IMG/VR virus record: IMGVR_UViG_2909246061_000002
Location: 1 to 44,333 of that record
Length of the DNA: 44,333 nucleotides
Reading direction: 5' to 3' (one strand)
Origin: a virus
Taxonomy: Duplodnaviria; Heunggongvirae; Uroviricota; Caudoviricetes
Positions 1 to 44,333 of this stretch are shown one piece after another. Positions within the stretch are counted from its first letter, which is position 1, and each line of letters starts with the position of its first letter. The notes beneath the pieces were generated by a model. The model did no database searches, was not told where the DNA came from, and worked only from the letters and a program-made list of their open reading frames with translations. The translations under genes and the position numbers were made by a program.

Positions 1-201
1 TTACCCATTGGCGCGGCTTAAGAGCTTATTTTTGAATTCACAATGGTCACGATATAACCATCTTGCTCGCCCGTGGATAACTTTGGCTTTTGGAAGGTCT
101 CCGGACTTAATCCGATCATAGATGAAGGTTTTACCGAAGCCAGTATCGGCCATGATGAATTTCAAATCAACCAGTGAATCAGGCTGTAGTTCGTGTTGCA
201 T
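1..201 (-). CDS. torI: AlpA/TorI-family excisionase (recombination directionality factor), 66 aa
   Basis: ATG at 201 with GGAG RBS 9 nt upstream; AlpA-like motif LVDLKFIMADTGFGKTFIYDRIKSGDLPKAKVIHGRARW; sequence matches my recollection of TorI of prophage KplE1; stop codon coincides with window start. Confidence 0.7.
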   Translation of the reverse strand: MQHELQPDSLVDLKFIMADTGFGKTFIYDRIKSGDLPKAKVIHGRARWLYRDHCEFKNKLLSRANG

Positions 202-220
202 GAGTGCTATCTCCGAATAG

Positions 221-236
221 GGAATCGAACCTGCAA
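221..236. repeat. 16-bp exact copy (GGAATCGAACCTGCAA) of the argW T-arm segment found at 43265..43280; att-core-like
   Basis: Exact 16/16 identity between 221..236 and 43265..43280; flanking bases differ on both sides. Confidence 0.5.
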
Positions 237-240
237 ATCA

Positions 241-267
241 GGTAATAAAAAACCGCCATCAGGCGGC
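241..267 (-). terminator. Rho-independent terminator closing the early-left operon
   Basis: Minus strand reads GCCGCC-TGAT-GGCGG followed by TTTTTTATT. Confidence 0.6.
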
Positions 268-426
268 TTGGTGTTCTTTCAGTTCTTCAATTCGAATATT
301 GGTTACTTCTGCATGTGCTATCTGCGCCCATATCATCCAGTGGTCATAGCAGTCATTGATGTTCTCTGCTTTGATAACTCTGTTGAATGGTTCTCCATTC
401 CATTCACCTGTGACTCGGAAGTGCAT
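259..426 (-). CDS. hypothetical small protein, 55 aa (below the ORF-track size cutoff)
   Basis: ATG at 426 with GGAG RBS 8 nt upstream; translation MHFRVTGEWNGEPFNRVIKAENINDCYDHWMIWAQIAHAEVTNIRIEELKEHQAA; stop lies inside the terminator hairpin. Confidence 0.5.
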   Translation of the reverse strand: MHFRVTGEWNGEPFNRVIKAENINDCYDHWMIWAQIAHAEVTNIRIEELKEHQAA

Positions 427-514
427 TTATCATCTCCATAAAACAAAACCCGCCGTAGCGAGTTCAGATAAAAGAAATCCCCGCGAGTGCGAGGATAGTT
501 ACTTGTTCATATTA

Positions 515-796
515 TTAATCGTCAATGTATTTTGAGCATTGTGGGCAATCATCAATCCCACAATACGATTCATATGCATCCTTTATTGCGTCGCGGGCTT
601 CAGTAAGAGTATTGAATAAGTTGCAGCTATTATCTTTTTGATATAGGTAAGTTCCTAATTTATAAGCAGAAGAAGCATCATTTCCGCTGTCTAAAATTAC
701 ATCGTTATGGATTCTGCACCTTGCAAGAACTCCTGATCCCATAAGGGTCTGCATAGCCCATTGCTCTTGATCTTCACACAAATCATGAATGCTCAT
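515..796 (-). CDS. hypothetical phage protein, 93 aa
   Basis: ORF-track frame 515..814; ATG at 796 preceded by GAGAGG RBS (the GTG at 814 would include the RBS). Confidence 0.5.
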   Translation of the reverse strand: MSIHDLCEDQEQWAMQTLMGSGVLARCRIHNDVILDSGNDASSAYKLGTYLYQKDNSCNLFNTLTEARDAIKDAYESYCGIDDCPQCSKYIDD

Positions 797-1605: not shown

Positions 1606-1797
1606 CTATTTCACCTTAATCTCAACATTTCGCAGCTTTAGCTCTACTGGCAAGTCTGACTTTCCTGTTAATGCTAATGCGAGATTTTCAGGAGTAATGA
1701 GAGCTGTTATTGTTTTCCCCATCGCCAGACGAATAATCATTCGTATCTCGCGATCGTCACATGCTCCCGGTCGAACAATTGATATTTGTCCGTTCAT
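1606..1797 (-). CDS. hypothetical small protein, 63 aa
   Basis: Internal ATG at 1797 with strong AAGGAG RBS overlapping the stop of the upstream gene; the longer ORF-track start at 1902 would overlap that gene by about 100 nt. Confidence 0.4.
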   Translation of the reverse strand: MNGQISIVRPGACDDREIRMIIRLAMGKTITALITPENLALALTGKSDLPVELKLRNVEIKVK

Positions 1798-3293: not shown

Positions 3294-3881
3294 TCAGAAA
3301 GGAGGGTAATCGTTCTGGCTGTAACCATAATCATCTGTATGATTCTGGCTTACGTTTTTAGAGCGATTGTCTTTATCTTTGAGGCTGGCAACCATGTTGG
3401 CGATAGTTTCTGGTTGCTTGCCTTCCGCCTTTTCTTTAAGGGTTTGACCTGTTTGTGCAATAAACGGGATGCGTATTTCCATCTGGTAGCTGTCTGCGCC
3501 AGTCTTTTTGTTTGTGGTTAATACTTTCTGGAGCACTAACCCGATTTTCTTTCCATGAAATTCAGGTGCAACAAATTTACTGGCGGATACCATATGTTGC
3601 GTTAATTGTCCAATCCCGGCACACCCCATCATGGCGTGAACGACATTTGCGCCAAATTTGTTTTCCGTGCCGTCATTTTTCTGAACACAGACGCTAAGAT
3701 ATTGGATTTTACGTCCGTCGTCGGATTCGCCAGAAAACTCAATAAATTTGGCTCCTTTTTCTGATTGCTTTAGTTCTGCTTCAGTAATGGTAATGATATG
3801 AGCGCCAGTTTCGTTAATAAAACCACCTTGCCCTGCGGTCAGTGCTGCTTCTTCGTTATAAGTAAAAATCACGTTGCTCAT
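3294..3881 (-). CDS. SSB-like single-strand DNA-binding protein (DUF669-like) partner of Sak4
   Basis: 195-aa ORF overlapping the Sak4 gene by 4 nt; acidic aromatic C-terminal tail (DDYGYSQNDYPPF) like SSB tails. Confidence 0.6.
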   Translation of the reverse strand: MSNVIFTYNEEAALTAGQGGFINETGAHIITITEAELKQSEKGAKFIEFSGESDDGRKIQYLSVCVQKNDGTENKFGANVVHAMMGCAGIGQLTQHMVSASKFVAPEFHGKKIGLVLQKVLTTNKKTGADSYQMEIRIPFIAQTGQTLKEKAEGKQPETIANMVASLKDKDNRSKNVSQNHTDDYGYSQNDYPPF

Positions 3882-4558
3882 GCTGCGTTTTCCTTAATTT
3901 GATGAACATTATTGATGCCGTAGTAATCACAAACAGTGGCATCGACGAAAGAGAGATCGTTATCAATCTCATTGGAGTCAAACATTCCCATTGGGGATTT
4001 AACAGTGTCTGCACCGTTGTTTTTTGTGGTGAAAAAGAACTGGTCATCACGGGTAAGGGTGCGAAGAACTATAGTAAACATGCCTTCGACAGTGATTTTC
4101 TCGTCCAGCATTTTGCCGATAGTTTTCATTTTCACGCGCCCCATAGGGGTTTCTTCGGTGTGTGCAAGAAAATAGACTCTCAGGTCATCAGGTGCATCCT
4201 GTGCAGCCTTAATCACCTCCCATGCGTGGCGGCCTATCTCAGTAAATTTATCAAACGATTTTTCTTCTGAGCGGCGCATAAACTCATTGCTCATCACATA
4301 CTGGAAGTCATCAACAATAACGATTCTTTTCCCGTATTCGTGAGCACGCTTAATTACGGCAACTATTACGTCCCATTTGTCAGTGGTAACTACGGTTCCT
4401 TTTTTTGCTCTGGCATCCCATGCCAGCCATTCTTTTGATTTAAATGGTAGCGGCTTGCCTATTGGTTTTATAAGTATTGCTTCCTCTGGATTGATATTTC
4501 TCATGCTGGTTGATTTTCCGGTGCCAGATTCACCGAGTATTAATGTCGCAGTTCCCAT
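3878..4558 (-). CDS. Sak4-like RecA-fold ATPase (single-strand annealing/recombination)
   Basis: 226 aa; Walker A GESGTGKS near N-terminus; Walker B-like IVIVDD; size and context typical of phage Sak4. Confidence 0.7.
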   Translation of the reverse strand: MGTATLILGESGTGKSTSMRNINPEEAILIKPIGKPLPFKSKEWLAWDARAKKGTVVTTDKWDVIVAVIKRAHEYGKRIVIVDDFQYVMSNEFMRRSEEKSFDKFTEIGRHAWEVIKAAQDAPDDLRVYFLAHTEETPMGRVKMKTIGKMLDEKITVEGMFTIVLRTLTRDDQFFFTTKNNGADTVKSPMGMFDSNEIDNDLSFVDATVCDYYGINNVHQIKENAA

Positions 4559-5027: not shown

Positions 5028-5996
5028 TTAGTAGGTTATTTTTGTTGCGAATACTTCGCCTTTTACGATGGCTGTTATGATATTTTTAGCAACATCTTCT
5101 GATGCGCCAACCTTGATAAGGTCAGCAAGTATTTTGTTATTTACTTCTTTCCGGTGAGCTTTATCCTTTGCTCTACGCTCTTCTTCGTCCTTGATTCTTT
5201 TTTCTTCTGCTATTCTGGCTTGCTCTTTTGCTTCAGCCTCGCGCCGGATTCGTTCAGCCTCCTCCTGTGCTTTTCGGCGTTCTGCTTCAATTGCCGCCTG
5301 CTTTTCTCTTTCAGCTCGTTCTGCTGCCTCTTTTGCTTCGCGCAGTGCTCGTTGCTCGGCTTCAATGCGTTCACGCTCTGCACGTTCCGCTGCGGCCTTA
5401 GCTTCTGCTTCTCGCCTTGCTGCTGCTTCAATTTCGGCTTTTGCCTTTGCTTCGGCTTCTGCTCTGGCTTTCTCTTCAGCTTCTCTTTTTAAGCGTTCTT
5501 CATGCTCTCGCTTTTCCTGCTCCGCTTTGAGTCTTGCCTCTTCTCTTTGGCGGTCAAATTCGCGATCCATCAAAATCGCTATTTCATGGTCAGACTCAAT
5601 TTGCTTTGCGAGAGCTTCAGCTGCTGCCTTAGCTTCTTCTTCGGCTTTAATCCGCGCCTGTTCTTCCTCATAATCAGTAAGAGGCTGGCGCGCCTTGGCT
5701 TTCAGTTCATCAAGGCGATCACGCACTGTCTTGCGGTTGGCATCAATTAGCTTTGGAATTTCCTTCAGTTCAGCAACAAGGTCTTTGCCAAGACCATCGA
5801 GATATGTTTTCGTCTGCGCAACTTTATACGCCAGAGAAGCGATCTCCTTTCTGCCCTTTGCCGTTGTGATATCAGGCACAAATGACATAACTTCACGTTC
5901 AACCTTTTGAAGGATTTCTTCAATCTGGTCGGCAGACTGAAATACAGTCATTGCATTTGCTTTTTCAATAACAACTAAATCTGTTACTTCACTCAT
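5028..5996 (-). CDS. coiled-coil E/A/K/R-rich phage protein (DUF1351-like), 322 aa
   Basis: ATG at 5996 with GGAGG RBS (the ORF-track start at 6050 is upstream of the RBS); long charged helical repeats; sits beside the Sak4 module. Confidence 0.6.
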   Translation of the reverse strand: MSEVTDLVVIEKANAMTVFQSADQIEEILQKVEREVMSFVPDITTAKGRKEIASLAYKVAQTKTYLDGLGKDLVAELKEIPKLIDANRKTVRDRLDELKAKARQPLTDYEEEQARIKAEEEAKAAAEALAKQIESDHEIAILMDREFDRQREEARLKAEQEKREHEERLKREAEEKARAEAEAKAKAEIEAAARREAEAKAAAERAERERIEAEQRALREAKEAAERAEREKQAAIEAERRKAQEEAERIRREAEAKEQARIAEEKRIKDEEERRAKDKAHRKEVNNKILADLIKVGASEDVAKNIITAIVKGEVFATKITY

Positions 5997-6169
5997 ATAT
6001 CCTCCGTCAAAAAAATTGCCCTCACACTGGAGGGCAAAGAAGATTTCCAATAATCAGAACAAGTCGGCTCCTGTTTAGTTACGAGCGACATTGCTCCGTG
6101 TATTCACTCGTTGGAATGAATACACAGTGCTGTGTTTATTCTGTTGTTAGTGCCAAAAATAAAGGCCGA

Positions 6170-7086: not shown

Positions 7087-7359
7087 TTACCTGGCTGTCA
7101 GTTGTTTTGATTTCCGGTATCCTGCCGCGTAAATGGCTACGTTCGGAAGACAAGTTGAACCTTCATATTTTCTGGTCAACGTTGTCAGAGTTATCACTTC
7201 TGCTCTCATTGCTGGTTTGCGCTTGCATTGCAAGACCACTCGTGAAGGGGTTGGCCTGTGTAGCTTGTCAGAGCTGATCGCCTCCTGACTTTGCAGATTT
7301 GCACGACGAGCTCTACGGCGAGAAGCTGCGGTTCCTTTAAATTCTGTTTTTCTGGACAT
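7087..7359 (-). CDS. N-like transcription antiterminator (arginine-rich motif), 90 aa
   Basis: ATG at 7359 with GGGAGG RBS; N-terminal RRRARRA arginine-rich motif; C-terminal YAAGYRKSKQLTAR resembles what I recall of P22 gp24; directly downstream of a boxA/boxB nut site. Confidence 0.7.
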   Translation of the reverse strand: MSRKTEFKGTAASRRRARRANLQSQEAISSDKLHRPTPSRVVLQCKRKPAMRAEVITLTTLTRKYEGSTCLPNVAIYAAGYRKSKQLTAR

Positions 7360-7457
7360 AGATTCCTCCCGAATAAACTTTGGCGATGCAATCTCGAAGC
7401 CCCTCCTGAGACGGTTGCTTCGGCATTGCATCCCACAGCTTATGTGGTTGGGTGATC

Positions 7458-7814: not shown

Positions 7815-8000
7815 TTACAGAGCAAAGAGATCACGCATTAGGTTGCTGTTCATCTGGTGGTTGAATTGATACGGCTCCAGTTCTTTTTTGATCTCGTTCA
7901 GGTGCTGTTCCGCTTTTCTTGCCAGATTGCGACTTTCTTGGATCTGGCTTTCCAACATTTTGTTGAGAATTTCCATCTCCGGTTGCAGATTCTTCGGCAT
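7815..8000 (-). CDS. small helical protein, 61 aa, overlapping the 3' end of the protease-like gene in another frame
   Basis: ATG at 8000 with AAGAGG RBS 9 nt upstream; protein-like helical sequence; frame opens only 42 nt upstream. Confidence 0.5.
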   Translation of the reverse strand: MPKNLQPEMEILNKMLESQIQESRNLARKAEQHLNEIKKELEPYQFNHQMNSNLMRDLFAL

Positions 8001-8835
8001 TAGTATTGTCCTCTTTATCTTGTGTAGTAAGAGGGAAATCCATCACCCTTGGTTTTCCAAACGTTGGGATTTCACCACTATGAATCTTATCACAGAAAAA
8101 ATTATCGAGTATTTCTGTTATACCTTTAGGACATTCAACACACTTGAAAAGTTCCTTGGCTTCTTTTCTGTCGATAACAAATCCATGTGAAGGATACGAA
8201 GCGATGAGTTTGCTTAACGCCCCTTCTTTTAGACTACTTGGCTTGTCTGCTAACCGTTGACCATAAGTGATAGCAATGCTCATCGCACGCTGATGCTCAC
8301 CAAGTTTTATTGGATCTATCTGAGCAGCCATGGGGGCTATCAATGCCTCTGTAAGTCTGGTTGCGATGTCAGCAGATATTTTAGTGCTTATCTGGTTTTC
8401 GTATTTTATCTGAACAAGGTATGAGTTAAACGCTGAAATAGAGCGCTCCTTCAGTGCATCGAGAGCTGTCATAATGGCTAAACCAGAACTCATCTCACCT
8501 ATTTCATCGTTTTTTTTCAGTTGGATATCTAATGGCCCGAGCTCACCCATGTCACCGATAACAAGTTTATTCGCAGCTATGGCTATTAGTGTACCAGCAC
8601 TTTTGCACGGCCCAACAACTAAAAGTGTTACCGTTTCATAATAGTGCTGGAGAGCCCTACCTATACGATAACCAGCATTAGGATCACCGCCATAAGTAGC
8701 AACACAGAAGATAACATTCTTTTTTAATTCATTTTGTGACTTACGCTTCTTGATTTTATTGGTTAGATCAAGATAACCATCACGATGAATATCGCCTATA
8801 TACACATAAACATCATTATTTTCAATAGTATTCAT
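7831..8835 (-). CDS. Clp-fold (ClpP/SppA-like, SDH-type) serine protease-like protein, 334 aa
   Basis: ClpP/SppA-like motif GDPNAGYRIGRALQ...VVGPCKSAGTLIAIAANKLVIGDMGELG with candidate nucleophile Ser; low-complexity C-terminal tail; AT-rich gene 166 bp downstream of cI on the same strand. Confidence 0.65.
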   Translation of the reverse strand: MNTIENNDVYVYIGDIHRDGYLDLTNKIKKRKSQNELKKNVIFCVATYGGDPNAGYRIGRALQHYYETVTLLVVGPCKSAGTLIAIAANKLVIGDMGELGPLDIQLKKNDEIGEMSSGLAIMTALDALKERSISAFNSYLVQIKYENQISTKISADIATRLTEALIAPMAAQIDPIKLGEHQRAMSIAITYGQRLADKPSSLKEGALSKLIASYPSHGFVIDRKEAKELFKCVECPKGITEILDNFFCDKIHSGEIPTFGKPRVMDFPLTTQDKEDNTNAEESATGDGNSQQNVGKPDPRKSQSGKKSGTAPERDQKRTGAVSIQPPDEQQPNA

Positions 8836-9001: not shown

Positions 9002-9706
9002 TCACGAATTTTTCAGCCACTCCCTTGCCTCGATGTCATCCAGATGGCGAGATTGCTTCAGAATACCAGCCACATACTCCACCTTTGCTACTTGATGATA
9101 AGGCAACGTTATTGGCCTATGGTCCTGGTTGATGCTTGTAAACTGGTATTCTCCGTCTCTGTCATAGCCAAGAACTTTGATCATGTTGTGTCCTTCAACG
9201 GTTCTGACAAACACCTCATCACCCGGGAATACTTTGGTGTTAGGCTCAATGAGTACATATTCTCCTGATTTTATTCTGGGCCACATGCTGTCTCCTTTCA
9301 CACGAAGACCAAAGGCATCTGGATCATCGCTATAAATCTTGAGCCACCCATCGCGCTCTTCGGTCATCTCGATGGCACCATCAACACCAAGAATTGCCTC
9401 ACCAACCACGCGCACTAACCCTTTTCTTACCTGACCGACAAAAGTTAAAGAATCTGAGCATGATGCAATTGGTGTTACATCATGTACCAAATCAAGCCAC
9501 CCATTAGGTAACCCAAGTGCGGCTTCGAATTTTCTTGCTAGTTTATCCCCTATGTTTCGAGTGCTTTTTTCACCGGAGACTTGCGTGAGTTGAGAAGGGC
9601 TAACTCCAAGCTTATCGGCAAAGCTTGCATTAGTGTTACCCGCGATTTTTTTATGCTCATCTAGCAAAAACGCCAGATTCGATTTGCGAATATCTTTGTT
9701 TTCCAT
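9002..9706 (-). CDS. cI: CI-like prophage repressor (HTH plus LexA-type S24 peptidase domain)
   Basis: 234 aa; N-terminal HTH region, C-terminal S24-like autocleavage domain (GDSMWPRIKSGEYVLIEP); divergent from a cro-like gene. Confidence 0.85.
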   Translation of the reverse strand: MENKDIRKSNLAFLLDEHKKIAGNTNASFADKLGVSPSQLTQVSGEKSTRNIGDKLARKFEAALGLPNGWLDLVHDVTPIASCSDSLTFVGQVRKGLVRVVGEAILGVDGAIEMTEERDGWLKIYSDDPDAFGLRVKGDSMWPRIKSGEYVLIEPNTKVFPGDEVFVRTVEGHNMIKVLGYDRDGEYQFTSINQDHRPITLPYHQVAKVEYVAGILKQSRHLDDIEAREWLKNS

Positions 9707-10190: not shown

Positions 10191-10490
10191 ATGACACAAG
10201 CAAGTTACAGCAAGCCAACACAGCGAGAAATTGATCGCGCAGAAACTGATTTACTCATCAACCTGTCAACGCTTACCCAGCGCGGTCTGGCAAAGATGAT
10301 TGGCTGTCATGAATCGAAGATAAGCAGAACGGACTGGAGATTTATTGCTTCGGTCTTGTGTGCTTTCGGAATGGCATCAGACATCAGTCCGATTAGCAGG
10401 GCTTTTAAGTATGCGCTTGATGAAATCACCAATAAAAAACGCCCGGTGTGCAAGACCGAGCGTTCTGAACAAATCCAGATGGATTTTTAA
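10191..10490 (+). CDS. cII: CII-like transcriptional activator
   Basis: 99 aa; C-terminus TNKKRPVCKTERSEQIQMDF closely matches my recollection of the lambda CII C-terminus (KKRPAATERSEQIQMEF). Confidence 0.85.
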   Translation: MTQASYSKPTQREIDRAETDLLINLSTLTQRGLAKMIGCHESKISRTDWRFIASVLCAFGMASDISPISRAFKYALDEITNKKRPVCKTERSEQIQMDF

Positions 10491-41931: not shown

Positions 41932-43086
41932 TCACTCCACCTTTTCATCAAGCCAGTCCGCCCACCATTGCATCATTTCTCTGCGCTTATCGAGATACTG
42001 AGCATGGTTGTAAATCCCGCGCACAGATCCGCCGTTGGCATGTGCCAGTTGCACTTCAATAGCGTCAGCAGGCCATTCGTGCTCGTTCATAATCGTGCTG
42101 AATTCATGCCTGAATCCGTGACCGCTTTCCAGACCTTCATAGCCGATTTGTTTGATCACAAGCAGTACCGCATTCTCGCAGATTGGCTTCTTCTTATCGT
42201 TGCGCCCGGCAAAAACAAACTCTGATACTGGTTTGGTGATGGAGCTTAACGTAGTGAGAAGTTCAACCACCTGGTCTGACATCGGGGCCACATGAATTTT
42301 GCGTCCTTTCATCACACTGGCGTCGATGGTGATAATCCTGTTTTCAAAATCGACGTTCTTCCATAGCATGGAACGAAGCTCTTTCGTTCTTAGGGCAGTG
42401 TAGCGTAAAACCTTGGTGGCAATGAGCGATACGATACTTCCTGAAAATGTTGCCAGTGCTTTATTGAATGCCGGGATCTGGTCTGCAGGAAGAAACGGGA
42501 AGTTCTTCTTGCGGTACCCCTTCATGGCGTCAGCAAGGTCAGGTGCCGGGTTATATTTAGCCCTGCCGGTGACAATAGCGTAACGGAAAACCTCGCCGCA
42601 TCTTCTGCGGGCTTTGTTGGCTCGCTCCATTGCACCGCGATCTTCAAATCTGCGGATTACTTCCAGCAGTTGCATCGGCTCAATATCCTGAATCTCAAGA
42701 CCGCCGATGATGGGTAAAATGTCGTCATCAAACATTTTGGCAAGTTCAGTTGCATAGCCTACTGACCAGACTTGCTTCTTGTGCTCGTACCATTCCTTGT
42801 AAATGGCACTAAAGGAATTGTTGTTAGACGAAGCCTTTTTCGCTTTTACCGGATCGATGCCAACCGAGATGTCTTTCCTCGCGGTCCATGCTTTATCTCT
42901 TGCCTCCTGCAAAGTCATTAGCGGATATTTTCCGACGGTCAGGATTTTCTCCTTACCGTCAATCTTGTAGCGAAGCTGCCATACCTTTTTCCCTGACACA
43001 GGGACATAAAGGTACAGGCCATTACCATCGAGTAGGCGGTATGGTTTTTCTTTCGGCTTTGCTGCTTCAATCTGCTTAACGGTGAG
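41932..43086 (-). CDS. intS: tyrosine integrase, 385 aa
   Basis: ATG at 43086 (the ORF-track GTG at 43125 is upstream); N-terminal arm-binding domain and C-terminal catalytic domain with HxxR; adjacent to argW; sequence and length match my recollection of K-12 IntS. Confidence 0.8.
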   Translation of the reverse strand, partial: LTVKQIEAAKPKEKPYRLLDGNGLYLYVPVSGKKVWQLRYKIDGKEKILTVGKYPLMTLQEARDKAWTARKDISVGIDPVKAKKASSNNNSFSAIYKEWYEHKKQVWSVGYATELAKMFDDDILPIIGGLEIQDIEPMQLLEVIRRFEDRGAMERANKARRRCGEVFRYAIVTGRAKYNPAPDLADAMKGYRKKNFPFLPADQIPAFNKALATFSGSIVSLIATKVLRYTALRTKELRSMLWKNVDFENRIITIDASVMKGRKIHVAPMSDQVVELLTTLSSITKPVSEFVFAGRNDKKKPICENAVLLVIKQIGYEGLESGHGFRHEFSTIMNEHEWPADAIEVQLAHANGGSVRGIYNHAQYLDKRREMMQWWADWLDEKVE

Positions 43087-43250
43087 CATGGGTAAAAATC
43101 CGGTGGGTAAAATTATTTTATCCACTTTTTACCCGTCATGGAGTGCGGCTGTCAACGATCTGAAGCGGACCATGACGAACTGTGAATCTACGGAAGGCTT
43201 GATATTCAGGGGATTTTGCGGACTGGTACGGATGGGAGCGAACTGATAAA

Positions 43251-43325
43251 TGGTGTCCCCTGCAGGAATCGAACCTGCAATTAGCCCTTAGGAGGGGCTC
43301 GTTATATCCATTTAACTAAGAGGAC
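43251..43325 (-). tRNA. argW: tRNA-Arg (anticodon CCU)
   Basis: Minus strand reads GTCCTCTTAGTTAAATGGATATAACGAGCCCCTCCTAAGGGCTAATTGCAGGTTCGATTCCTGCAGGGGACACCA; cloverleaf with CCT anticodon and encoded CCA. Confidence 0.9.
43265..43280. repeat. 16-bp att core within the argW T-arm (copy of 221..236)
   Basis: Exact repeat of 221..236; lies between the tRNA 5' part and the integrase-proximal tRNA 3' end. Confidence 0.5.
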
Positions 43326-43400: not shown

Positions 43401-44333
43401 TTATGCCGGGTTTTTATAATTTTTCTTAATGTTTTCCGCACGTTCTGCTTTTTGGCGTGCTTCTGCTTTACGCTTATTGCTCATGTCGTTACGAATCTGT
43501 GCATGACTCATTAACGCGAAGATAAAGGTGCCGCCGCAGATGTTCCCCGCTAAAGTAGGTAGTGCGAAGGGCCAGATGAAATCGCTCCAGTGCAGCGTAC
43601 CGTTAAACACCAGATAGAGGATTTCAACAGAACCGACCACGATATGGGTGGTGTCACCCAGGGCAATAAGCCAGGTCATCAATATAATCACCACAATCTT
43701 TGCCGCACCCGCTGCAGGAAACATCCAAACCATAGTGGCGATCAGCCAGCCGGAAATGATCGCGTTGGCAAACATCTCGCTGGGGGTGTTCTTCATCACA
43801 TCCATGCCGATTTTGACAAATGCATCGCGAGTTTCTTCATTGAAGATAGGCATATATTCAAATGCCCACGCCGCAATACCTGTCCCGAGAATATTACCCA
43901 GCAGCACGACGCCCCATAACCGTATAAGTAAGCCGAAGTTGCTCATTGTCGGTTTTTGCATGACGGGTAGTACCGCAGTCACGGTATTTTCGGTAAATAA
44001 TTGCTGGCGGGCCATAATGACGATAATAAAACCAAAGGTATAACCGAGATTCTCCAGCAAGAAGCTGCCCGGCACACCTTCCAGTTCGACATGAAATATC
44101 CCTTTTGCCAGTAACGAAGCGCCCATCGACAGACCCGCCGCAATGGCTGACCACAGTAGCGCCATTGCGTCGCGTTCCAGCTCTTTTTCACCATCCTGGC
44201 GGATATGCTCATGAATTGCCATCGCCCGGGAGGGGAGTCGGTCTTCATCTATTTCTATTTTTTTGCCGCGCTCTTTTTCTTCGCTCTCAACTTCAATTTC
44301 GTCGCTGTGTTGATCAATTTTGTCGTTGTCCAT
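43401..44333 (-). CDS. yfdC: formate/nitrite transporter (FNT) family inner membrane protein
   Basis: 310 aa; multiple TM segments; chromosomal neighbour of argW in E. coli K-12 as I recall; start codon at the window end. Confidence 0.75.
   Translation of the reverse strand: MDNDKIDQHSDEIEVESEEKERGKKIEIDEDRLPSRAMAIHEHIRQDGEKELERDAMALLWSAIAAGLSMGASLLAKGIFHVELEGVPGSFLLENLGYTFGFIIVIMARQQLFTENTVTAVLPVMQKPTMSNFGLLIRLWGVVLLGNILGTGIAAWAFEYMPIFNEETRDAFVKIGMDVMKNTPSEMFANAIISGWLIATMVWMFPAAGAAKIVVIILMTWLIALGDTTHIVVGSVEILYLVFNGTLHWSDFIWPFALPTLAGNICGGTFIFALMSHAQIRNDMSNKRKAEARQKAERAENIKKNYKNPA

Follow-up and report, generated by a model that had tools for sequence, protein, structure and literature searches.

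At the left end of a 44,333-nt stretch of DNA, positions 1 to 44,333 of the IMG/VR record IMGVR_UViG_2909246061_000002 (the window, to which all coordinates refer), a 16-bp sequence, GGAATCGAACCTGCAA, here called T16, lies directly in front of torI, the gene for an excisionase or recombination directionality factor (RDF). The same 16 bp are found inside the tRNA gene argW at the other end of the window. The question raised by this locus is whether the repeat is the core at which the prophage recombines with the chromosome and, if it is not, why it is there. We consider it about 90% probable that the prophage resides in argW by means of a recombination module of the KplE1/HK620/Sf6 type, that T16 takes no part in the crossover, and that it has been kept as a probable cis element limiting TorI synthesis. 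The initial annotation described the prophage boundary as ambiguous. This was overstated, since the boundary of the module had already been defined experimentally (PMC2951348, PMC8787464).

T16 occurs as two exact copies, at 221..236 and at 43265..43280, both on the plus strand of the window, as had been noted at the outset; in tRNA sense, on the minus strand, it reads TTGCAGGTTCGATTCC. When up to 2 mismatches were allowed, shuffled sequences gave a mean of 0.07 matches. The second copy is the genuine T-arm of argW, where it takes in the T-loop together with the 5' T-stem strand before it and 2 nt of the 3' T-stem strand after it. As the flanking bases differ on either side, the identity stops at exactly 16 nt. 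The first copy is an internal one in the torI leader. It is located between the intrinsic terminator that closes the early-left (ea) genes (stem-loop 269..250 with 8 pairs, 5 of them G-C, and T-tract 249..240, minus strand) and the Shine-Dalgarno sequence (SD) of torI, GGAG (211..214, minus strand), exactly as first described. The same hairpin is annotated as a terminator in HK140. Within T16 the conserved core is GTTCGATTCC (222..231, minus strand).

The open reading frame (ORF) of torI runs from 1 to 201 on the minus strand, with the ATG at 201..199 and the stop codon at 1..3, and not from 1 to 203 as first given. It encodes 66 amino acids (aa), and the product is identical to K-12 TorI in 66 of 66 residues and matches PDB entry 1Z4H, 'Tor inhibition protein', with E=6.6e-43; in the matching genomes the gene likewise bears the annotation torI. 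The leftward early operon ends with this gene. The SD and the start of torI lie to the left of position 221, not an acceptor stem, and the earlier remark that this sequence is no displaced tRNA 3' end was correct. No tRNA or tRNA pseudogene was found at 1..600 (argW is the only hit of ARAGORN in the window), no known RNA family came near the Rfam threshold at 1..600, and literature searches with the 16-mer as a string returned papers on tRNA probes only.

The attachment core of this type of element is known. KplE1 is bordered by a duplicated 16-nt core, CTGCAGGGGACACCAT (PMC2951348). Its reverse complement, ATGGTGTCCCCTGCAG, is present in the window at 43250..43265 (minus strand), where it consists of the 3' end of argW (tRNA-Arg(CCT), 43251..43325, minus strand, by ARAGORN) plus one base. 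This attL copy directly abuts T16, which lies just 5' of it in the tRNA, overlaps it by one G, and is the single occurrence of the true core within the window. At a coverage of 80% or more, the first 1200 bp of the window are matched by about 20 complete E. coli genomes, the best with 99% identity. In two genomes sharing the left junction, torI is followed by dsdC, 183 bp away, and a second copy of the core is located between these genes at L001 5912..5927 (L numbers are our own labels), which corresponds to 74-89 bp left of window position 1. The order in K-12 is identical: argW, intS ... torI, pawZ (annotated as an argW 3' fragment), dsdC. By this comparison the attR core of the window's own strain should lie 74-89 bp beyond the left edge, which coincides with the stop codon of torI. 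The earlier suggestion of a core left of the window was therefore right as to position and wrong as to sequence, the real core being a different, adjacent 16-mer, which had gone unrecognised at the outset, and not a second T16. It should be noted that about 29 of the 80 IMG/VR contigs retrieved with TorI, as well as the window, end exactly at the torI stop codon.

Two alternative empty sites were built in silico and searched for in 5,426 complete E. coli genomes. Joining at the true core gives a site of 443 nt (dsdC flank, core, remainder of argW, yfdC), which was found with 100% identity over its full length, and 912 of the 5,426 genomes carry it at a coverage of at least 80%. The site joined at T16 (torI, 16-mer, rest of argW) was contiguous in 0 of the 5,426. 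Fifteen phage genome records (HK620, Sf6, HF4s, N7, IME10 and others) contain, uninterrupted, the excised-circle junction (attP) predicted for the true core. The T16-based junction is uninterrupted in none of the phage genomes and always matches in two parts, separated by about 295 bp that include torI. The genome records of HK620 and Sf6 carry int, the attP core, hkaB, hkaC (which is TorI), the 16-mer and the terminator in one stretch. Because of the empty sites, the attP junctions and the HK620 and Sf6 records we place torI inside the prophage and the 16-mer internally. This supports the reading, first made on the KplE1 paradigm, which makes 221..236 an internal pseudo-core and puts the real left junction further left, outside the window. 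Excision dependent on IntS and TorI and giving attP and attB would agree with these in silico proxies, as both the empty site and the attP junction exist naturally. In Kapi1, which has the same module, both junctions have been sequenced, a 17-bp duplication, AATGGTGTCCCCTGCAG, was found, and deletion of attB has been tested (PMC8787464). The boundary, the core and the identity of the module are thus established by the present analysis and by the literature.

The opposite reading takes the T16 pair as the true core, with a prophage from 221..236 to 43265..43280 and torI in outside neighbouring DNA, for example a KplE1 remnant. In its favour, the two copies form a direct repeat of 16 identical bp, one of them inside the target tRNA gene, and a phage record is delimited in this way. 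But excision at T16 would abolish the tRNA by joining argW to the torI leader, and the displaced 3' end of the tRNA is found at L001 5912..5927 and not left of 221. As every test of T16 as a crossover core fails except that of being a repeat we regard the reading as refuted in silico and give it next to no chance. T16 is a decoy, a conserved T-loop copy before torI and not a crossover site.

The record in question is that of CUS-3 (CP000711), which has the same integrase, argW site, 16-mer and terminator as the window. It begins TTGCAGGTTCGATTCCTGCAGGGGACACCAT and ends at the 16-mer, and both ends are annotated as att cores ('attL core', 'attR core'). The two 16-mers, at CP000711 40192..40207 (L006 1..16) and 1..16 (L007 1..16), match window 221..236 and 43265..43280. 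The support from CUS-3 is a feature annotation only, in a record which was itself cut at the repeat. With the decoy repeat as its limits the record opens 15 nt within argW, and torI and the P (attR) arm are missing from it. Such a delimitation, which the initial annotation had raised as an alternative, is wrong on this evidence.

A further arrangement was found in E. coli F404 (NZ_OY754364; L003 3990..4030), where dsdC is followed by the 16-mer without torI. This locus was considered as an ancestral contiguous tRNA block and rejected, as its sequence, ATGGTGTCC joined to GAATAGGGAATCG, shows a deletion: torI and most of the attR core have been lost between TCC microhomologies. By coincidence the deletion recreates a 31-nt stretch of the same length as the tRNA 3' half. 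Without the RDF and an intact attR the F404 prophage should be locked in the chromosome. Tandem-prophage scenarios were also rejected; a KplE1-type element beside a phage integrated at the T-arm would put intS, and not torI, next to the 16-mer.

The module carried by this lambda-like prophage is the known KplE1/HK620/Sf6-type module and shows every one of its defining features that can be checked. The integrase gene intS (41932..43089, minus strand) lies beside argW, reads away from the tRNA gene and has its promoter inside attL. It encodes a P4-type tyrosine recombinase of 385 aa, counted from the ATG at 43089, which is identical to K-12 IntS in 384 of 385 residues (99.7%) and has the Pfam domains Arm-DNA-bind_3, Phage_int_M and Phage_integrase (arm-binding, central and catalytic). 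The P' arm of attL (43090..43249, minus strand), delimited by alignment with K-12 attL and HK620 attP, follows the K-12 sequence almost base for base, including the -35 hexamer TTGACA of PintS at 43150..43155. Three repeats of the GGGTAAAA type (43090..43097, 43105..43112 and 43126..43134) are probably the arm-type sites of IntS. TorI sites (GTTCG, GATCG or GTCCG) in a two-block layout on attL have been mapped and mutated by the KplE1 group (PMC2951348), and the five pentamers of the window attL (43239..43243, 43219..43223, 43176..43180, 43166..43170 and 43156..43160) keep the published two-block spacing. At the prophage's other end torI reads towards attR. The core would be duplicated at both ends, the attL copy being in the window and the attR copy being expected from the genomes with a near-identical junction and from K-12.

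KplE1 (CPS-53) of E. coli K-12, studied by Panis, Mejean and Ansaldi (PMC2951348, PMC3509656), has the same attL arm, pentamers, core and gene order (argW-intS ... torI-core-dsdC), and also the 16-mer upstream of torI. It is a defective remnant of 10 kb without a repressor, whereas the prophage described here is lambda-like and about 43 kb long, and the K-12 homology upstream of torI stops about 14 nt past the 16-mer. The P22-like phages HK620, Sf6, Kapi1 and HK633 have the module as xis-attP-int, and their stretch of int, core, hkaB, hkaC, 16-mer and terminator is 97-99% identical to the window. They are podoviruses with early and structural genes unlike those of the window. Annotators of phages of the HK620/Sf6 type have seen in the region of the 16-mer either a boundary sequence, bsq2, or a putative promoter pI.

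A second module targeting the same argW core was observed in the IMG/VR contigs L234/L131 and L235-L313. Its RDF is a distant relative of TorI starting MRELRDDSL..., its arm-type repeats are GGGCATA and not GGGTAAAA, and its int-proximal RDF-site repeats vary (RTTACC, CGACCAGAAC or GTTCG). In many cases terminator, TTGCCTG and T-loop leader are shared with the first module, and the leader may thus be exchanged as a unit.

If the 16-mer is not a core, its conservation has to be accounted for. It belongs to the module and not to the ea genes: prophages which share the ea genes and terminator but carry lambda-type int-xis lose homology to the window at about 244-247, while the 16-mer and about 14 nt beyond it are invariant in K-12, HK620, Sf6, CUS-3 and P470. 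A genome scan and viral scans for more diverged relatives gave 78 distinct RDF leaders, and 55 of these contain GTTCGATT(T)C[CT]. In 45 of the 55 motif-bearing leaders the motif start (GTTCG) is 16 nt before GGAG. The carriers are found in Escherichia, Serratia, Citrobacter, Pantoea, Edwardsiella and Erwinia and have two types of RDF, the second being the MRELRDDSL... protein. The 10-mer GTTCGATTCC is invariant where adjacent leader positions show about 50-70% identity, and is about as conserved as the SD. Leaders often lack the first G of the tRNA-like GGTTCG and commonly carry a 1-nt U insertion (GATTTCC), and only rarely is the copy degenerate (L263, L319). Two tandem copies with a period of 16 nt stand directly upstream of the excisionase SD in Erwinia phage Midgardsormr38 (L010 2304..2336) and in L331, L332, L336 and L328; the second copy in L336 is slightly degenerate, GGTTCGGTTCC. 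The conservation of the 10-mer across these leaders indicates purifying selection about as strong as that on the SD.

The sequence of the leader also carries traces of its origin. Additional flanks identical to the tRNA differ by lineage, being TTGCA on the 5' side in E. coli and TG on the 3' side in Serratia and Pantoea. The order of T-arm copy, torI and core is colinear with the tRNA, and in diverged relatives TTCGAT, as in the T-loop, is still found in the attP arm that adjoins the true core. From the colinearity, the lineage-specific flanks and the TTCGAT arms we infer that the leader copy of T16 most probably goes back to a longer block of tRNA origin in an ancestral attP. In several of these relatives (L017-L021, L010, L312 and others) the arm reads TTCGATGTa followed by TGCAGGGG, compared to TTCGATTCC followed by TGCAGGGG in the tRNA. 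The core-type arm recognized by the integrase would on this comparison probably include TTCGAT, with TGCAGGG as the 7-bp overlap. Covariation of the leader motif with the host T-loop was looked for in the tRNA with a variant core (L411), which has the same T-arm, so that there was no contrast.

The motif is probably a cis element limiting TorI synthesis. The view that torI is expressed by N-antiterminated read-through is plausible because the terminator lies directly upstream, no sigma-70-like promoter is seen in a scan, and a gene for an N-like antiterminator (7087..7431, minus strand; phrog_271, E=9.7e-26) lies upstream in the same operon direction. The initial annotation went further and held that torI has no promoter of its own and is expressed only by such read-through. 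The scan agrees with the first statement, although the annotators of HK620 and Sf6 predict a cII-dependent promoter pI over the 16-mer; the second is plausible and unproven, as the KplE1 group calls PtorI 'non-characterized' (PMC2951348) and lets the excision switch rest on RDF expression. The DNA copy number of CPS-53 (KplE1) rises markedly under bicyclomycin, which reproduced a finding of Menouni and coworkers from 2013 (PMC11551753). Upstream of torI there are three terminator-like sites within about 250 bp, two further hairpins on the minus strand, at 496..477 and 465..446, being located between small ea-type ORFs. Menouni and coworkers are said to have reported in 2013 that inhibition of Rho lets read-through transcripts express torI and excise KplE1.

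In the proposed mechanism UUCC of the motif would pair with the SD GGAG in read-through transcripts. In a lysogen the weak read-through past the terminator would then give too little TorI to trigger excision, while after induction the strong N-antiterminated transcription would give enough. The predicted probability that the SD is paired, P(SD paired), is 0.83 in 53 leaders with the motif and 0.53 in 22 leaders without it, a contrast which is not a clean test as the leaders are phylogenetically related. Changing UUCC to AAGG in silico lowers P(SD paired) to 0.63, and the common U insertion is predicted to complete a 6-bp helix, AUUUCC:GGAGAU. Sequestration of the SD by UUCC is, to a modest degree, the best supported of the five mechanisms tested. 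We therefore suggest with some reserve, at a little under even odds, that the copy of the argW T-loop, GTTCGATTCC, is a dedicated and hitherto undescribed cis-regulatory element of tRNA origin which would set the threshold for RDF and excision by sequestering the SD and/or by binding a T-loop-recognising factor. That the motif acts more specifically by translational damping of TorI made from weak read-through transcripts is its most likely role, and a more tentative proposal still.

Several observations weigh against parts of this account. The attR core is outside the window, and its position has been taken from other genomes with a 99% identical junction. The predicted leader hairpins are weak and not significant compared to shuffles (z -2 to +0.8), and roughly one in three motif-bearing leaders is predicted to pair its SD elsewhere. 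Pairing with the SD needs UUCC only, which leaves the invariance of GTTCGATT unexplained. About 30% of the leaders do without the motif, which makes it dispensable, and in Dryocola there is an apparent clean absence of 23 nt.

A conserved RNA fold or T-arm mimic was considered and rejected: there is no stem covariation, the stem has 1-2 closing pairs only, the folding energy is not significant and there is no Rfam hit. By eye, the leader matches the consensus of integration host factor (IHF), sigma-54 and the TorR box poorly, and these candidates were dropped as well.

The motif could also be a neutral scar, the functionless leftover of an ancestral attP whose 31 nt of identity to argW, T-arm through 3' end, were later split by insertion or duplication of the torI segment. 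The colinearity with the tRNA is in agreement with this, the lineage-specific flanks are what decay of a longer block would leave behind, and the TTCGAT arms as well as the loss of the motif from about 30% of the leaders fit too. A scar is, however, not expected to keep a 10-mer invariant in a leader otherwise about 50-70% identical, to retain tandem duplications or to show so few degenerate copies, and a contiguous 31-nt attP of the postulated ancestral kind was found in no phage. We consider the scar unlikely, while the descent from a tRNA-derived block is common to it and to the cis element favoured here.

Another unlikely, but not negligible, explanation is that the motif is a DNA site for one of the recombination proteins, either an operator by which TorI regulates its own gene or a core-type half-site for IntS mimicking the B arm of attB, and that the bound protein blocks transcription into torI in the lysogen. 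Both proteins are known repressors of PintS (PMC2951348). All motif-bearing modules target argW with homologous integrases. The motif contains the TorI pentamer GTTCG (227..231, minus strand), and some leaders read CAGTTCGAT, which is close to site I1 and scores 8.1 with a position weight matrix (PWM) made from 19 RDF sites (consensus (C/T)A-GTTCG-C). The motif of the window scores -0.7 with the same PWM, against 7.9-17.5 for true sites; it lacks the flanking consensus, and an equal or better score is reached by 77% of random GTTCG-like background pentamers. The motif persists in modules with arm repeats of the RTTACC type (L259, L250). The TorI operator was rejected as the main model on the PWM test and on these modules. 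For IntS it can be said that the attB arm bordering the overlap has the sequence of the motif and that the attP arms share TTCGAT in the same register. Lone core-type half-sites bind lambda-type integrases weakly. The C arms of attP vary (TTCGAT, GTAGAT, TTAGGT, TGTGAT), so contacts with Int fail to account for a 10-mer that stays the same, and leaders commonly have 1 nt inserted within the site. A half-site for IntS is possible but weak as an explanation, and a cis element acting on TorI synthesis is preferred.

The promoter pI annotated for HK620 and Sf6 is a very improbable explanation of the motif: activated by cII on infection, it would transcribe across torI and attP into intS, and the GenBank record of HK620 has a 'phage integration' promoter at 1664..1702 (window 208..246) with a cII site at 1689..1701. 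A CII-like protein is encoded in the prophage, and transcription starting close to the SD or beyond it would, as with lambda pI, give Int without TorI. The half-sites, however, are spaced N5 and not as the canonical TTGC-N6-TTGC, the first half-site in the window is TTAC, the scan finds no promoter-like hexamers, and the motif would fall in a spacer which needs no sequence conservation. The motif is moreover kept in leaders of Erwinia, Edwardsiella and Pantoea without TTGC repeats, and TTGCCTG persists in leaders without the motif. With the wrong spacing of its half-sites and no joint conservation with the motif, pI was rejected in favour of limitation of TorI synthesis.

A related system is the control of int and xis in phage lambda. 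In lambda pI lies inside xis, int is subject to sib retroregulation, and N allows read-through from pL. As in the prophage studied here the RDF gene of lambda is distal in an N-antiterminated pL operon, and expression of the RDF and of the integrase can be separated. In contrast to lambda, attP lies between xis and int in the present module, which places the two genes apart in the integrated state; int is transcribed from an autoregulated promoter of its own in attL, and an element like the lambda pI or sib is not demonstrable.

The rest of the window has the gene content of a lambda-like prophage: the N-like gene, CI, Cro, CII, O, an annealing pair of SSB and Sak4 type, and tail genes. The gene for the CI-like repressor is located at 9002..9706 and the CII-like gene at 10191..10490. 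The SSB and Sak4-like recombination pair lies at 3294..4558, and otherwise similar prophages (L001-L004) have exo/bet/gam instead; the early-left operon is therefore mosaic. Two large ORFs of unknown function, one of 334 aa at 7831..8835 between the N-like gene and the CI-like repressor gene (phrog_21683) and one of 340 aa at 5028..6050 in the early-left region (phrog_1376/21365), may be accessory or moron genes. On the argW side the host flank contains yfdC (43401..44333, minus strand), an ORF which is annotated beside tRNA-Arg in the empty-site genomes.

The main part of the finding is explained by existing knowledge; what is new is a modest, testable lead, and the gain is incremental and not conceptual. 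An exact 16-bp repeat of this kind is an annotation trap, as it suggests a plausible but wrong boundary which drops the excisionase and cuts into argW, and at least one GenBank phage record, that of CUS-3, has been delimited by the decoy repeat. Gene-based prophage delimitation has its own pitfall: it cuts at the torI stop codon and loses the attR arm and the core 74-89 bp further on, as in this window and in about a third of the IMG/VR contigs retrieved. In the literature searched, the repeat is not described as part of a strongly conserved, T-loop-derived element in the RDF leaders of argW modules. A 10-nt element conserved like the SD and placed directly before torI in many phages of Enterobacterales is a cheap and concrete target for mutagenesis. 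The motif would matter for the control of excision because the KplE1 group places the switch in the expression of the RDF and calls PtorI uncharacterised.

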